Shown in pieces: positions 13,966 through 57,388 of a stretch of DNA of 64,000 nt. Position 1 is the first letter of the stretch. Every line of letters begins with the position of its first letter. Under the pieces are notes generated by a model. The model was not told the DNA's origin, searched no databases, and was given only the letters and a program-made list of their open reading frames with translations. The position numbers were made by a program, and so were the translations under genes. Source of the stretch: an uncultured Acidobacteriota bacterium (lineage in GTDB: Bacteria; Acidobacteriota; Blastocatellia; Pyrinomonadales; Pyrinomonadaceae); the NCBI GenBank assembly GCA_963726735.1, contig CAVSDM010000011.1, positions 2,827 through 66,826 on the forward strand. Reading direction: 5' to 3'.

Positions 13966-14055
13966 GGTAAATCGGTAAGTCGGTAAATGCGTAAATGGTG
14001 AGATAGCGCGAGCTGGCTCTATTCACTGATTTACTGATTCACCATTCACTATTCC
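13966..14055 (-). repeat. Inverted heptamer-word array (GGTAAAT/GGTGAAT family), imperfect hairpin between dnaJ and hspR
   Basis: Arm ggtaaatcggtaagtcggtaaatgcgtaaatggtgag (13966-14002) faces ctattcactgatttactgattcaccattcactattcc (14019-14055). GGUGAAU can pair with AUUUACC through G-U on the minus-strand RNA. Pairing overall is imperfect. Confidence 0.5.
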
Positions 14056-15230
14056 AAGTCCCATCGCCACGCGCGGGTTCTCGGGGTTGAGCTGCGCGTA
14101 GCGCTTGAGGAGTTCCTTCGTCTCTTCCGAGATGACCTTCGGGAAGCGTGACCTGGACTTCGACGAACTGGTCGCCGCGCGCCTGCGGGTTGCGCAAGGA
14201 GGGGATGCCGCGCTCGCGCATGCGGAACTGCGCGCCCGACTGCGTGCCGGGCGGAATCTTGAGCTGCGCCTTGCCCTCGATGGTCGGCACCTCGATCTTC
14301 GCGCCGAGCGCCGCCTCGGCAATCGTCACCGGCACCTTGACGTAGATGTTGTCGCCCTTGCGCGTGAAGTGCTTGTGCTTGCCGACGTTCGTGATGATGA
14401 AGAGGTCGCCCGCCGGCGCGCCCATGCGCCCGCCCTCGCCCTTGCCCGGGATCGCGCACGCGCGAGCCCGTGTCCACGCCCGCCGGAATCCTGACCTTCA
14501 CCGTCTCGGCCTTCGGCACCGTGCCCTTGCCGTTGCAGAGCGCGCACGGCGGCCGACGCTTCCCGGCGCCGCCGCAGTCGGGGCACTCCTGCGCGAAGCG
14601 CATCCGCCCGCCCGCCTTCTGCACCTGACCCGAGCCGTGGCAGGTCGGGCAGGTGACGGGGTTGCCGCCCGTGTCGCCCGCGCCGTTGCAGCGCGGGCAC
14701 TGCTCGGAGCGGTTGACCGTGATGTTCGTCGTCAGGCCCGTGACGGCCTCCTCGAACGAGAGCGCGAGCGGCATCTCGATGTCGGCGCCCTTCTGCGGCA
14801 TCGGCCGCGGCGGCTCCTTCTCGGCCTTCCCGCCGCCGAACAGGTCCGAGAAGATGTCGCGGAACGAAGAGCCGCCGCCCGCCGTCGAGGAGGTCGCGGT
14901 GTTGCCCCAGTCGAAGCCCGCGAAGTCGAAGGGCACGCCCGCGCCGCCCCGCGCGCCCGCGCCGCCGCCCGGCCCCGTCGCGCCGCGCGCGGCGGCGTCG
15001 GCGAGCTGGTCGGAGTACGACCCGAAGCGGTCGTAGACCTTGCGCTTCTTCGGGTCGGAGAGCACCTCGTGCGCCTCCGTGATCTTCTTGAAGCGCTCCT
15101 CGGCGGACTTGTCGCCCGGGTTCACGTCCGGGTGGTACTTGCGCGCGAGCCGGCGGTAAGCCTTCTTGATCTCCTCCGGCTTCGCGTCCCGCTTGACGCC
15201 CAGAACTTGGTAGAAGTCTTCTTTTGCCAT
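14023..15230 (-). CDS. dnaJ: Molecular chaperone DnaJ; at least two frame breaks in the 3' third
   Basis: J domain: [34 protein letters not shown]. Zinc-finger repeats: [32 protein letters not shown]. The C-terminal domain continues in other frames: [30 protein letters not shown], then [22 protein letters not shown]. Confidence 0.9.
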
Positions 15231-15233
15231 TCT

Positions 15234-15321
15234 GAAATGGTGAATAGTAAATGGTAAATGGTAAGTTGGGACGAGTTTAGCCTTTAAATCCAGTCACCGA
15301 TTAACCCATTCACCATTCACG
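15234..15321 (-). repeat. Inverted heptamer-word array between dnaK and dnaJ
   Basis: Arm gaaatggtgaatagtaaatggtaaatggtaag (15234-15265) faces cagtcaccgattaacccattcaccattcacg (15291-15321). aatggtgaat and attcaccatt are perfect complements; the rest is degenerate. Confidence 0.5.
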
Positions 15322-15326
15322 CGCTC

Positions 15327-17269
15327 TTACTTGTTCTCGTCAACGTCAACGTACTCGGCGTCGATGACGTTGTCGTCGCCGCCGCCCGCGAGGTCGGCCG
15401 CCGCCGGCCGAGCCGGTGGACGCGCCCGCCGCGTTGGCCTGCTCTTCGCCGCCGCCCGCGCGCCGCGCCCGCGCCGCCGCCCTGGTAGAGCGCCTCGGCC
15501 AGCTTGTGCGAGGCGGTCTGGAGGTTCTTGAAGGCGTTGTTCAGACGGTCGGCGCCGCCCTCTTCGAGCGCCTTCTTCGCGTCGGCGATGGCCGTCTCGA
15601 CCTGCGTCTGCGTGGCGCCGTCGAGCTTCTCCTTGTTCTCGCTGAAGGTCTTCTCGATCTGGAAGACGAGGCCGTCGAGCCGGTTGCGCGCCTCGATCTC
15701 TTCGCGCTTGCGCGCGTCCTCGGCCGCGTGCGACTCGGCGTCGCGCATCATCTTGTCGATCTCGTCCTTCGAGAGACCCGACGAAGCCGTGATCGTGATC
15801 TTCTGCTCGCGCCCCGTGCCCATGTCCTTCGCCGAGACGTTGACGATGCCGTTGGCGTCGATGTCGAACGTCACCTCGACCTGCGGCATGCCGCGCGGCG
15901 CGGGCGGGATGCCGACGAGGTGGAACTTGCCGAGCGTCCGGTTGTCGCCCGCCATCGGGCGCTCGCCCTGTAGGACGTGCACCTCGACGCTCGTCTGGTT
16001 GTCCGACGCCGTCGAGAAGATCTCCGACTTGCGCGTCGGGATGGTCGTGTTGCGCGGGATGAGCTTCGTGATCACGCCGCCGAGCGTCTCGATGCCGAGC
16101 GAGAGCGGCGTCACGTCGAGCAGGAGGATGTCCGTCTTCTCGCCCGAGAGCACGCCCGCCTGCACGGCCGCGCCGACGGCGACGACCTCGTCCGGGTTGA
16201 CGCTCTTGTTCGGCTCCTTGCCGAAGATGTTCTTGACGATCTCCTGCACCTTCGGGATGCGCGTCGAGCCGCCGACGAGGACGACCTCGTCAATCTTGCT
16301 CGCGTCGACGCCCGCGTCCTTGATCGCCTGCTCGACGGGCGCCATCAGGCGCTTGAGGATCGGGTCGATCAACTGCTCGAAGTTCGCGCGCGTCAGCTTC
16401 ATCACGAGGTGCTTCGGCCCCGAGGCGTCGGCCGTGATGAAGGGCAGGTTGATCTCCGTCTCCATCGTCGAAGAGAGCTCGATCTTCGCCTTCTCGGCCG
16501 CCTCCTTCAGACGCTGGAGGGCCATCTTGTCGTTCGAGAGGTCGATGCCCTGATCCTTCTTGAACTCCTCGATGATCCACTTGATGAGCGCCTCGTCGAT
16601 GTCGTCGCCGCCGAGGTGCGTGTCGCCGTTCGTGGATTTCACTTCGACGACGCCCTCGCCGACTTCGAGGATCGAGATGTCGAACGTGCCGCCGCCGAAG
16701 TCGAAGACCGCGATGGTCTCGTCCTTCTTCTTGTCGAGCCCGTAGGCCAGCGCCGCCGCCGTCGGCTCGTTGACGATGCGCATCACTTCGAGGCCGGCGA
16801 TTTTGCCCGCGTCTTTCGTCGCCTGCCGCTGCGAGTCGTTGAAGTAGGCCGGGACGGTGATGACCGCCTTCTCGACCTTCTGGCCGAGGTAGTCTTCCGC
16901 CGCCTGCTTCAGCTTCTGCAGGATCATCGCCGAAATCTCGGGCGGCGACCACTCCTTGCCGCCCGCGTTGATGCGCACGTCGCTGCCCGCGGCCGTCACG
17001 CCGTAGGGCACCTGCTTCTTCTCCTCCGTGACCTCGTCGAAGCGGCGCCCCATGAAGCGCTTGATCGAGTAGACGGTGTTCTCGGGGTTGGTGACGGCCT
17101 GGCGCTTGGCGACCTGACCGACCAGACGGTTGCCGTCCTTGGTGAAGGCGACGACCGAGGGGGTCGTGCGCCCGCCCTCGGAGTTGGTGATGACGGTCGG
17201 CTCGCCGCCTTCCATCACGGCCACGACCGAATTGGTCGTGCCCAAGTCAATACCGATGATCTTGCTCAT
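15327..17269 (-). CDS. dnaK: Molecular chaperone DnaK (Hsp70); frame break in the low-complexity C-terminal tail
   Basis: [35 protein letters not shown] and [14 protein letters not shown] are canonical Hsp70 motifs. The true C-terminus [16 protein letters not shown]-stop (TAA at 15327-15329) is in a different frame from the 650-aa ORF. Confidence 0.95.
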
Positions 17270-56695: not shown

Positions 56696-56710
56696 CTCAA
56701 TTCCTTTCAA

Positions 56711-56833
56711 GTAAGCAGGCAGTAGGCAGATGGTCAGCAGGCAGTTAAAACTTTCGGCGGCGGGCGGTTTGGGTTGAAGCGTCTGCGTCCTTCAGGGCGG
56801 AGCCGACTGCTCGATCTGCCTACTGCCTACTGC
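56711..56833 (-). repeat. Inverted word array (GTAGGCAG family) between ilvN and ilvC
   Basis: gtaagcaggcagtaggcagatggtcagcaggcagt (56711-56745) faces gactgctcgatctgcctactgcctactgc (56805-56833). A 14-nt perfect core (ggcagtaggcagat) has degenerate flanks. The ilvN stop (CAG TAG) lies in the right arm. Confidence 0.65.
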
Positions 56834-57318
56834 TCCTCATTCGACACGCGGTTGATGGCGATGTAGCCGGTGCGAGTGATGTCGTTGATGCCGAGGGGGC
56901 GGAGCAGCTCGATGAAGGCGTCCACCTTCTCTCGGTTGCCCGACGCCTCGATGAGCATGCGCGTATGCGAGATGTCCACGACCTTCGCGCGGAAGACCGC
57001 GACGAGACTCAAGACTTCCTGCCGCGCCGCGCCCGGCGTGGCCGAGACATCTATGAGCGCCATCTCGCGCTCGACGTGCGGCTGGCTGGTCACGTCGCGC
57101 ACCTCGCGCACGCGCGCGAGCCGCTCGCACTGCTTGACGATCTGCTCGACCGTGCGGTCGTCGCCCGTCGTCACCACCGTGACGCGCGACCATTCCGGGT
57201 CGAGCGTCGGGCCGACCGACAGCGTCTCGATGTTGAACCCGCGCGCGCTGAACAGCCCCACGATGCGCGACAATTCGCCCGGCTGGTCGGCGACGATGAT
57301 GGAGAGCGTGTGACGCAT
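56827..57318 (-). CDS. ilvN: Acetolactate synthase small (regulatory) subunit
   Basis: Intact 163-aa ORF. MRHTLSIIVADQPGELSRIVGLFSARGFNIETLSV is an ACT domain. It lies immediately downstream of ilvB. Confidence 0.9.
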   Translation of the reverse strand: MRHTLSIIVADQPGELSRIVGLFSARGFNIETLSVGPTLDPEWSRVTVVTTGDDRTVEQIVKQCERLARVREVRDVTSQPHVEREMALIDVSATPGAARQEVLSLVAVFRAKVVDISHTRMLIEASGNREKVDAFIELLRPLGINDITRTGYIAINRVSNEEQ

Positions 57319-57324
57319 AAATGC

Positions 57325-57388
57325 CGTGAATCGTGAATCGTAAATCGTGAATAGAACCTGCCTTTATCTATTCACGATTTACGATTCA
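57325..57388 (-). repeat. Heptamer array (CGTGAAT x3, CGTAAAT x1) forming a 20-bp perfect hairpin between ilvB and ilvN
   Basis: tgaatcgtaaatcgtgaata (57334-57353) faces tattcacgatttacgattca (57369-57388), with a 15-nt loop. The ilvB stop TGA (57372-57374) lies inside the right arm. Confidence 0.85.

Follow-up and report, generated by a model that had tools for sequence, protein, structure and literature searches.

The 64-kb window analysed here, the whole stretch of contig CAVSDM010000011.1 from an uncultured member of the Acidobacteriota, carries at the ends of many of its genes inverted arrays of short words: a run of 7- or 8-nucleotide (nt) units, a loop, and a second run composed of the reverse-complement units. 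The reading we favour, with a rough probability of 0.5, is that these arrays are dispersed, fast-evolving palindromes akin to repetitive extragenic palindromic (REP) sequences or MITEs (miniature inverted-repeat transposable elements), with arms of heptanucleotide microsatellite, which would be co-transcribed as intercistronic hairpins. The underlying observation is genuine and broader than one window. New about it are the many word families per genome and the concerted re-wording of both arms at orthologous junctions, together with a constant G-to-C polarity, a geometry bridging stop and start codons, and a loop-end homology that points to dispersal.

Arrays were detected with Tandem Repeats Finder (TRF) and their partner arms by local alignment of the reverse complement. 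Two other detectors were dropped, one based on exact 4-mer chains, which was swamped by coding periodicity (38 loci versus 12.5 in shuffles), and a strict autocorrelation detector, which missed most loci. An earlier note on this DNA had listed 14 loci with one architecture. TRF returned period-7 arrays at these coordinates (period 8 at two loci), and self-match within arms was 0.65 at lag 7 versus 0.18–0.33 at the other lags between 4 and 11, in agreement with the description of the arms as inverted runs of 7–8-nt words. At 11 of the 14 loci the arms were more complementary to each other than after shuffling (z > 3.5), and for these the common architecture stands; the loci at 23877 and 53727 and the outer arms at 55478 are weak. 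Folding of 12 spacers as RNA, with those at 35368, 39234 and 55478 left out, gave z-scores of −3.1 to −10.5 in nine cases and no signal at 23877, 43809 and 53727. The best stems quoted previously are present, with 22/22 paired positions at 57334/57367, 21/22 at 31422/31469, 38/42 at 34145/34203 and 28 Watson-Crick pairs at 18152, and the arms, at 51–53% GC, are indeed AT-richer than the window (about 68%). The assertion that arrays occupy most gene junctions applies to co-directional spacers, where roughly 12 of the 19 that measure at least 40 nt in our own map of open reading frames (ORFs) contain one, and not to other spacer types. An assembly artefact was ruled out by the occurrence of the same architecture in Illumina k-mer assemblies (locus L081, JGI contigs).

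The inverted heptamer architecture is characteristic of the lineage to which the window belongs. Judged by its proteins, the host belongs to the Blastocatellia (Acidobacteriota) and is Pyrinomonadaceae-like: the closest IlvC in species-representative genomes is from an Acidobacteriota metagenome-assembled genome (MAG; 79% identity), followed by Blastocatellia and Pyrinomonadales, and among IlvN relatives, which reach 97% identity, the named ones are Pyrinomonadaceae. GC content, HspR and a TIGR02266 domain had at first hinted at Burkholderia or Myxococcus, an origin rejected on the basis of these homologies. An exact look-up of the window's IlvN sequence returned no record. We compared the window with 84 loci from relatives (705 kb; four gene-called contigs and 80 loci obtained by metagenome scan) and with 80 diverse ilvC loci as controls (1.41 Mb). 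At a threshold of at least 2.8 copies, period-7 and period-8 arrays numbered 10 and 2 in the window, 126 and 7 in the relatives, and 16 and 16 in the controls; the scan of related loci proposed in the earlier note thus revealed a density of period-7 arrays that is about 15-fold higher in relatives than in controls. Arrays with periods of 5, 8, 10 and 11 are rare, and the signal is specific to period 7. An inverted partner within 350 nt, with a score beyond the 99th percentile obtained with shuffled arms, was found for 120 of 175 period-7 arrays. Controls contributed two of these 120, both from the Blastocatellia MAG L004, and a looser, consensus-based pairing also recovered two loci in a 68%-GC 'Deltaproteobacteria' MAG (L016). 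We found no description of such arrays in Acidobacteria in the literature.

Orthologous ilv junctions were compared between genomes. In the four gene-called relative contigs the gene order of the window is found reversed, as gltB-ilvB-ilvN-ilvC-ilvD-RimK-like-luciferase-like-DUF1684; ilvB and gltB were assigned by synteny with relatives, with no family match behind either. Between ilvB and ilvN the window has CGTGAAT words, L085 ATGATGA, L086 GGATGAA, L087 CCGTGAA, L082 and L151 AGTGACG, L081 GGGTGTT and L094 GTGATAA; in lower-GC relatives the junction carries GATTGCC, GATTTCG, GATTGCT, GATTTCA or AGTTTTC. The IlvN proteins of L085, L086 and L087 are 96–97% identical to that of the window, yet the words at this junction differ, and about one quarter of the distinct ilvB/ilvN junctions are without insert. 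Between ilvN and ilvC, GTAGGCA words are found in the window and L085, GTAGGCA arms with a GGGTGCT hairpin nested inside in L086, GTAGTCA in L087 and L081–L083, GTTCAGC in L088, GTTAGCT in L089 and GGGGGCC in L091; L092 and L084 have no array there. Throughout, the two arms share their words and change jointly, and variant words are mirrored in order between them (e.g., GATGGCA with TGCCATC in L085). Words are thus replaced or re-homogenized at orthologous junctions, and complementarity of the arms is kept.

Word families are also re-used within a genome, at two or three junctions within 20 kb: GTGATAA occurs at three junctions of L094, GTAGTCA at three and GGGTGTT at two of L081, AGTGACG at two of L082, and GGGATGA at two of L101. 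Copies of the GTAGNCA family (alignment A1) have common loop ends (one end reads ...CAGTAGG-GCTCCGC, the opposite end TTCTTCTACTG or TCTTAACTGCC), which hold in paralogous as well as orthologous copies, and in the window copy at 43300 these asymmetric ends are inverted relative to the genes when compared with the ilvN/ilvC element. Shared loop ends and the occurrence of both orientations therefore argue for dispersed, REP- or MITE-like elements; the alignment shows the GTAGNCA copies to be, by all appearances, dispersed and not only local expansions. Their loops accept other elements, such as the GC-rich hairpin at 34145 and other palindromes in relatives.

A GC-rich composite palindrome of about 150–200 nt is present in three copies in the window (21775–21974, 35402–35554 and about 39300–39430) and contains nested hairpins (CGCCGCGTCGCGTGAGCGACGGCTGAAC/GTTCAGCC... 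and GAGCCCGGCCTTTCAAGGCCGGG). Two copies (35402, 39300), oppositely oriented, form part of the loops of GTAGGCA hairpins, and the third (21775–21974) is located between convergent genes with degenerate heptamer flanks only. The core hairpin of this palindrome was absent from all 164 fetched loci.

The real asymmetry between the arms is an excess of G over C in the 5' arm, not one of stop codons. In 81 distinct hairpins the 5' arm consists of 32% G, 30% T, 25% A and 13% C, with the 3' arm as its mirror image. Among 46 distinct consensus words of the 5' arm, G exceeds C in 32, is exceeded by C in 4 and equals it in 10, a count of 32:4 that overstates the evidence as word families are not fully independent; T versus A is unbiased (21:16). 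By symmetry the polarity is identical on both strands and is therefore independent of the orientation of insertion.

The earlier note had regarded stop codons as the hallmark of the arrays, arguing that every word contains one, that three or more words hence close all reading frames, and that the stop-rich arm is the first to be met from either direction. The last point is correct, 3' arms being nearly stop-free. The first is not, for ATGGCAG, TCGGCAG and CAGGCAG lack a stop; the impression arose because this genome happens to use words rich in G, T and A, and GATTGCC, GATTTCG, GGGTGTT and GTTCAGC, common families in relatives, have no stop in either arm. Nor are the frames always closed: at the 14 window loci all three are closed by six top-strand 5' arms and by no 3' arm, the corresponding figures being 4/6 and 0/6 for a window subset of six and 21/73 and 2/73 for the relatives. 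Start codons in the relatives are distributed in the same direction (59/73 5' arms versus 15/73 3' arms). A cassette in which the 5' arm is selected to halt ribosomes in three frames would account for the contrast between arms in closed frames. It would also fit the finding that arrays overrunning the natural stop supply the working one, as for ilvB in the window and also for ilvD and ilvN, and that in L088 the stop-less GTTCAGC arm accompanies a 17-codon extension of ilvN. With composition held fixed, however, 5' words of the 46 families contain 25 stops versus 21.1 expected, stop-less words include GGGTGTT and the commonest words of the lower-GC relatives (GATTGCC, GATTTCG, GATTGCT), and neither the inverted arm nor the period is explained. 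We therefore regard the multi-frame stop as highly improbable as the defining or selected feature.

The placement of the arrays is that of REP sequences, as had been proposed. Twelve of the listed window loci lie between co-directional and two between convergent genes (ORF ends read by eye, for the reason given below), and none of the six divergent spacers of the window (21114/21238, 23032/23130, 25142/25327, 36135/36177, 42220/42399, 48418/48557) contains an array. In L081, L082 and L084, arrays are present in 10 of 30 co-directional and 0 of 4 divergent spacers. The 5' arm, read in the sense direction, starts at or over the upstream stop codon; the first word includes this stop for dnaJ, for ilvN and ilvD, and for two further genes, which end at 39240 and 43310. 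At the other end, 0–8 nt separate the 3' arm from the next ATG at hspR, dnaJ, ilvD, the pgsA-like gene and two genes that start at 39489 and 43424. The ilvN array extends to 5 nt before the ATG and its predicted stem to 12–15 nt before it, with no Shine-Dalgarno (SD) sequence between, and at ilvC and the gene at 43937 an SD sequence comes right after the arm. At the seven junctions where the next start lies 0–8 nt past the 3' arm, transcription must therefore read through the array. A promoter scan of 13–33 kb returned a single promoter-like site, upstream of dnaK, and the hairpins of this region are therefore internal to operons; arrays occur, as surmised before, inside dnaK-dnaJ-hspR and ilvB-ilvN-ilvC-ilvD. 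In ilvB/ilvN spacers with an insert, the fold usually leaves a total of 0–25 unpaired nt between stop and start, and in hairpin-less orthologues the spacer measures 2–25 nt. The promoter-like site itself (17431–17459, minus strand) is a near-consensus σ70-like promoter, TTGACA-17-TATATT, with 11 of 12 matches.

The same geometry bears on whether the arrays act as terminators or attenuators, be it intrinsically or by covering or uncovering a C-rich site for Rho loading within the 3' arm. Very stable stems behind ORF ends would suit such a role, and in being rich in C and poor in G the 3' arm resembles a Rho utilization (rut) site. In addition, at least five T residues in the 9-nt tail were found for 9 of 75 hairpins on the sense versus 3 of 75 on the antisense strand; a few hairpins, namely those at 18152 (U5), at 55478 (U6) and between ilvC and ilvD of L085 (U7), could attenuate. 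Yet the U-tract is missing in most (66/75, as the earlier note had said), a terminator scan reported nothing at any array, the C-rich arm is base-paired, and the start within 0–20 nt leaves no room for a promoter in operons that must be co-expressed (dnaK-dnaJ-hspR, ilvBNCD), the only promoter-like site in the scanned 13–33 kb being that of dnaK. The required read-through confirms that these are not plain intrinsic terminators, and termination as their general role is very unlikely.

Still less probable, and last among the readings considered, is a periodic protein-binding array, in which a translation regulator such as S1, Csp or CsrA would bind the 3' arm in its unpaired form, or a transposase or nucleoid protein would read words spaced by 7 nt in the DNA. 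The spacing of 7 nt is strict while words vary, and 3' arms lie directly upstream of SD-less starts (hspR, dnaJ, pgsA-like, ilvN, ilvD, 39489, 43424), in parallel to the TAACTGA repeats, where binding of this kind has been proposed (PMC4679880). Dozens of unrelated words, however, would require a reader nearly devoid of sequence specificity, the stem sequesters the arm, and no candidate protein was found.

Taking these data together, we propose that the arrays are REP- or MITE-like palindromes maintained as follows. Replication slippage would lengthen and shorten the arms, templated correction of one arm from the other (of the quasipalindrome type) would keep them complementary, and transposition or gene conversion would carry copies between junctions. 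The element would be co-transcribed with its operon, where the long stem loops out the whole insert. Folding would hold the upstream stop and the downstream SD sequence or start at a distance of just a few unpaired bases, like that found in relatives that lack the insert, and operons may tolerate the insert because stop and start stay close after folding. The stem would probably act like that of REPs or of selective-stabilization hairpins, as a barrier to 3' exonucleases or a target of double-strand-specific RNases, and would thereby set the relative stability of operon segments; the minority followed by a U-run may terminate partially. The polarity, with a G-rich 5' and a C-rich, G-poor 3' arm, would be best explained by purifying selection against start codons and SD-like runs of G in the arm that directly precedes a start, stops behind an ORF being presumably harmless, or useful where an array overruns the natural stop.

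Several findings weigh against this proposal, in addition to the partial dependence among word families. It gives no account of why the period is 7. Selection on the 3' arm is weakly supported, as with composition fixed the 3' words contain 10 stops and 4 starts versus 16.0 and 7.9 expected. Regarding mobility, no arm pair encloses an ORF, and a weak probe, the Y1 transposase TnpA of IS608, had no match in 3153 ORFs, many genomes being represented by fragments only and such a gene usually being single in a genome. Solo arrays such as (AGGCAGA) x10 exist that have no inverted partner within 4 kb. An RNA-level function is the mechanism we prefer, at about even odds; folding in vivo and effects on stability or processing are what it presupposes. 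Maintenance at the RNA level predicts more G.U than A.C mismatches on the sense strand, and in 76 hairpins with known sense strand, 2336 aligned positions comprised 2067 Watson-Crick pairs (88%), 72 G.U, 57 A.C and 140 others; the excess of G.U over A.C was not significant (binomial p = 0.22). This neutral result fits maintenance at the DNA level (templated) or too little data.

Solo or direct-only arrays were seen at 13995–14068 of L117, 13859–13932 of L118, 6651–6717 of L119, 10499–10536 of L135 and 2639–2675 of L154.

The points just listed lend some weight to the alternative that the arrays are a by-product or selfish DNA, generated by slippage and quasipalindrome template switching, surviving where they do least harm, and giving rise to an RNA hairpin without function. 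That G.U is not above A.C, that stops are not above the expectation from composition, that words turn over rapidly with presence/absence polymorphism at one and the same junction, and that solo arrays exist are all compatible with it, and the literature attributes the excess of heptamer repeats to polymerase slippage. On the other hand, the G-to-C polarity is fixed across families and unrelated lineages (L004, L016 and, apparently, Xanthomonas, PMC4692102), which requires a directional cause because slippage alone gives none; the stems are near-perfect despite their fast change; and the arrays cluster in operon spacers, while divergent regions, although larger, have none. We hold the by-product alternative to be a serious but somewhat unlikely one.

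It is also conceivable, though rather unlikely, that the arrays form a distinct class of self-propagating palindromic-heptamer elements with a dedicated reader of the 7-nt register, which the cell uses as modular hairpins. A transposase-like enzyme or RNA-binding factor would then impose period and polarity whatever the word, and the hairpins would bridge stop and start for translational coupling and segmental mRNA stability. Such a class may span Blastocatellia, some 'Deltaproteobacteria' MAGs and Xanthomonas.

Should the window's density of about 15 per 64 kb apply to the whole genome, one of 5 Mb would contain on the order of a thousand hairpins, and in a dominant soil phylum the structure of operon mRNAs would then depend to a major extent on elements that are not annotated. 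The hairpins also mislead gene callers. IlvN homologues (P0001–P0120) are annotated with 172–200 amino acids versus 163 from the conserved ATG, probably because, in the absence of stops, the ORF is prolonged upstream through the 3' arm, and some ORFs extend into the 5' arm as well. Beyond annotation, the junctions represent a natural experiment in which microsatellite palindromes stay complementary while the repeat word is replaced.

The individual elements of the window illustrate the range of forms. In the dnaK operon, the dnaJ/hspR hairpin (13966–14055, minus strand; words GGTAAATC/GGTAAGTC, period 8) has the dnaJ stop TAG (14049–14051) inside the first word of its sense 5' arm and the likely hspR ATG (13958–13960) 5 nt past its 3' arm (stem z 5.3; fold −25.8 kcal/mol, z −3.3). 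The dnaK/dnaJ hairpin (15234–15321, minus; GGTGAAT/GGTAAAT; stem z 3.7, fold z −3.4) ends about 5 nt before the dnaJ ATG (15228–15230). Between the genes for a YaeI-like phosphodiesterase and a pgsA-like protein, the hairpin at 18152–18220 (minus; GTGACGA/GTGATGA; stem z 12.2; fold −52 kcal/mol, z −7.9) is directly followed by its U5 run and an ATG. The locus at 23877–23935, between convergent genes, consists of a left GTGATCA array of 2.6 copies only, which includes a stop codon, and has no convincing inverted partner (stem z 1.8, fold z +0.3). Right behind the stop of the gene for a 2029-amino-acid CarboxypepD_reg-repeat protein, the hairpin at 31422–31490 (plus) is built of the mirrored words GTAGGCAG/ATGGCAG/TCGGCAG (stem z 12.9; fold −53.2 kcal/mol, z −9.9). 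A fold of −75.5 kcal/mol (z −10.5; stem z 22) belongs to the hairpin at 34145–34244 between convergent genes (GTAGCCA/GTAGACA/GTAGTCA); the pairing at 34145/34203 includes the nested GC-rich hairpin, an inverted-repeat search pairs the arms at 34145/34219 (as it does those at 57334/57367 and 31422/31469), and the right arm holds the stop of the minus-strand gene.

GTAGGCA/GTAGAGA arms (35359–35381 and 35602–35624; stem z 6.9) enclose about 200 nt of the composite palindrome at 35355–35626 (minus), and GTAGGCG/GTAGGCA arms (stem z 6.7) enclose the oppositely oriented copy at 39234–39482 (plus), where the upstream stop TAG (39238–39240) is in the first word and the ATG at 39489 lies 7 nt past the 3' arm. 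A hairpin absent from the first list, with period-8 words GAGACGAA, was found at 37285–37335 (plus; stem z 4.7, fold z −3.1) in the spacer between the ORFs 36663–37265 and 37342–39240. The GTAGGCA hairpin at 43305–43423 (plus; 23/24 Watson-Crick pairs, stem z 9.1, fold z −5.5), which separates a 3-hydroxyacyl-CoA dehydrogenase gene from a PilZ gene, has the upstream stop in its first word and the ATG abutting its 3' arm. The weaker CGTGAAN/CGTGACA hairpin at 43809–43915 (plus; stem z 4.1, fold z only −0.7) is followed after about 20 nt by an SD sequence (GGAGG) and an ATG.

In the ilv operon, all on the minus strand, the ilvB/ilvN hairpin at 57325–57388 (CGTGAAT/CGTAAAT; stem z 13; fold −35.6 kcal/mol, z −8.5) contains the perfect 22-bp stem mentioned above, and ilvB is read five codons beyond the stop position of its closest relatives (L085–L087), to a TGA in the third word. 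The ilvN/ilvC hairpin at 56711–56833 (GTAGGCA; 17/18 Watson-Crick pairs, stem z 7.7, fold z −3.9) has the ilvN stop in its first word, is followed by an SD sequence (AAGGA) and ATG, and is orthologous to hairpins of L081–L083 and L085–L087. At the ilvC/ilvD junction (55478–55676), two-word GTAGGCAG/GTAGATGGCAG arms flank a palindromic insert of about 170 nt; the outer arms reach z 0.7, and the U6 run precedes the ilvD ATG (55471). Behind ilvD, the GTAGGCA hairpin at 53727–53790 is weak (stem z 2.1, fold z −0.2), with the ilvD stop TAG as its first word; orthologous copies in relatives are far clearer. The stretch from this hairpin to the RimK-like gene contains a conserved GC hairpin followed by a run of five to seven T (GCCGCTCGCAGAGCGGCC-TTTTTATTT; window 53640–53690, minus), which is also present at 13600–13660 of L081, 13530–13575 of L082 and 11120–11160 of L083 and is followed by a strong SD sequence (GGAGGGAG) and an ATG. 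By its features it is a canonical terminator-like or leader element, unlike the heptamer hairpins.

Genes of the window (64–72% GC) that matched NCBIfam or Pfam families encode an HspR-like regulator of the MerR family, DnaJ, DnaK, the pgsA-like and YaeI-like proteins, the 2029-amino-acid CarboxypepD_reg-repeat protein, two PilZ proteins, IlvD, IlvC and IlvN. Conserved genes at 15320–15335, 14049–15230, 53783–55471 and 57404–59160 have broken frames: the DnaK C-terminus ...DVDENK-TAA is in another frame than the long ORF, and dnaJ, ilvD (53783–55471) and ilvB are each split into pieces, with similar breaks in L083. These look like indel errors of long-read assembly, not pseudogenes, and exact ORF ends were therefore read by eye. 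Within the 2029-amino-acid gene, a 252-nt tandem repeat (27838–30027; 8.7 copies, 67% matches) corresponds to repeated CarboxypepD_reg/SdrD-B-like domains. About 3 kb of lower GC (0.64) at 3000–5900 show no convincing coding potential under a codon model, ORFs without Pfam match and no Rfam match. At 6820–6903, TGAAATTTCAAATC, itself partly palindromic, is present twice, with heptamer-like AAATNTC units, followed by a separate GC-rich hairpin (6853–6903); this layout is unlike that of the inverted arrays.

How do the arrays relate to known systems? A search of the whole window against Rfam 15 at gathering score, as had been suggested, yielded a tRNA at 45034–45106 as sole match, and no array matched a family. 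The statement of the earlier note that the arrays belong to no described class is nevertheless too strong in view of the inverted heptamers of Xanthomonas (PMC4692102), the heptamer excess summarized in PMC4679880, and the placement of REPs (PMC3733652). REPs lie downstream of ORFs where neighbouring genes are unidirectional or convergent, and frequently form inverted dimers (Di Nocera et al. 2013, PMC3733652), and a distinct clade of Y1 transposases associated with terminal inverted repeats (TIRs) occurs in Acidobacteria (PMC3733652). Like REPs and their compound forms, bacterial interspersed mosaic elements (BIMEs) and REPINs, the elements described here are numerous dispersed extragenic palindromes found in both orientations and as inverted doublets, and REPs are thought to be RNA elements. 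The GTAGNCA family, the only one with GTAG, carries this tag of REPs in each word, and most families have neither GTAG nor CGTC. Unlike a REP unit, which is a single imperfect palindrome of 20–40 bp with one unpaired GTAG or CGTC tag, the arms are tandem 7-mers, and a cognate transposase of the REP type (RAYT or TIRYT) was not seen with the weak Y1 probe in genome fragments. The elements are thus REP-like in placement and behaviour yet fail the definition of the REP unit.

At the RNA level, an operon segment stabilized by REPs is known from malEFG of E. coli, and MITE hairpins are processed within mRNA in Neisseria (Correia/NEMIS elements, by RNase III) and Yersinia (ERIC). With these MITEs the arrays share dispersed inverted repeats next to genes, and co-transcription and a long hairpin are what we infer for them too. 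Unlike MITEs, which have fixed TIRs derived from insertion sequences, target-site duplications and no microsatellite arms, orthologous elements here differ in the words of their arms and in how many copies these contain, and no target-site duplication is visible beyond the arms at the stop and SD flanks. Intrinsic terminators, GC-rich hairpins with a short loop and a U-tract, differ in that the arms have 51–53% GC and T-rich tails occur in 9 of 75. The selective processing and stabilization stem-loops of the Clostridium cip-cel cluster (PMC4423207) are similar in being stable and located at cistron 3' ends inside operons; however, those are unique, gene-specific and of demonstrated function, whereas the present ones are repeat-built, dispersed, rapidly re-worded and of putative function.

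Among heptamer repeats, which according to Mrazek et al. (2007, as cited in PMC4679880) are the most abundant class of long bacterial simple sequence repeats and for which polymerase slippage was proposed as cause, there are the cyanobacterial short tandemly repeated repetitive (STRR) sequences (Mazel et al. 1990, cited in PMC4692102) and the TAACTGA arrays of Beggiatoaceae, Cyanobacteria and Bacteroidetes, which lie just upstream of SD-less starts (MacGregor 2015, PMC4679880). Both consist of tandem intergenic heptamers, as do our arrays, but of a single conserved word in direct arrays without hairpin (169 direct sets versus one indirect in the BOGUAY genome, PMC4679880), in contrast to 46 consensus words and mostly paired arrays here.

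The closest described analogue is the inverted heptamer repeat GGGAATC of Xanthomonas (and GGGGAYT of Nostoc). In two Xanthomonas genomes 186 and 183 arrays were found (Rehm et al. 2015, PMC4692102); about 90% are intergenic, at a mean distance of 28 nt from the upstream ORF and rarely between divergent genes, 70–75 of about 185 loci are convergent inverted pairs capable of forming a stem-loop, length and sequence vary strongly between close species, and the function was reported as unknown (PMC4692102). In common with these arrays, ours have a period of 7 with at least two copies of heterogeneous units, as seen by TRF, lag-7 self-match and the census of periods. They are intergenic, close behind an ORF and absent between divergent genes (0/6 in the window, 0/4 in relatives), and they form convergent pairs (120/175), the leading arm being the G-rich one in 32 of 36 skewed families and, by our reading of PMC4692102, apparently in Xanthomonas too. 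They differ in the G-tract word (GGGANTN) that can form a G-quadruplex: no word of the window contains a run of three G, which is limited to GGGTGTT, GGGATGA and GGGGGCC in some relatives; Xanthomonas has one word family per genome, viewed as centred on G-quadruplexes, whereas here many families coexist in a genome and most are not capable of forming a quadruplex. Loop-end homology indicative of dispersed copies, arms that reach from stop to start within operons, and the different phylum further set them apart. The period of 7 and the leading G-rich arm nevertheless tie the acidobacterial arrays to the heptamers of Xanthomonas and cyanobacteria, which suggests a common cause.

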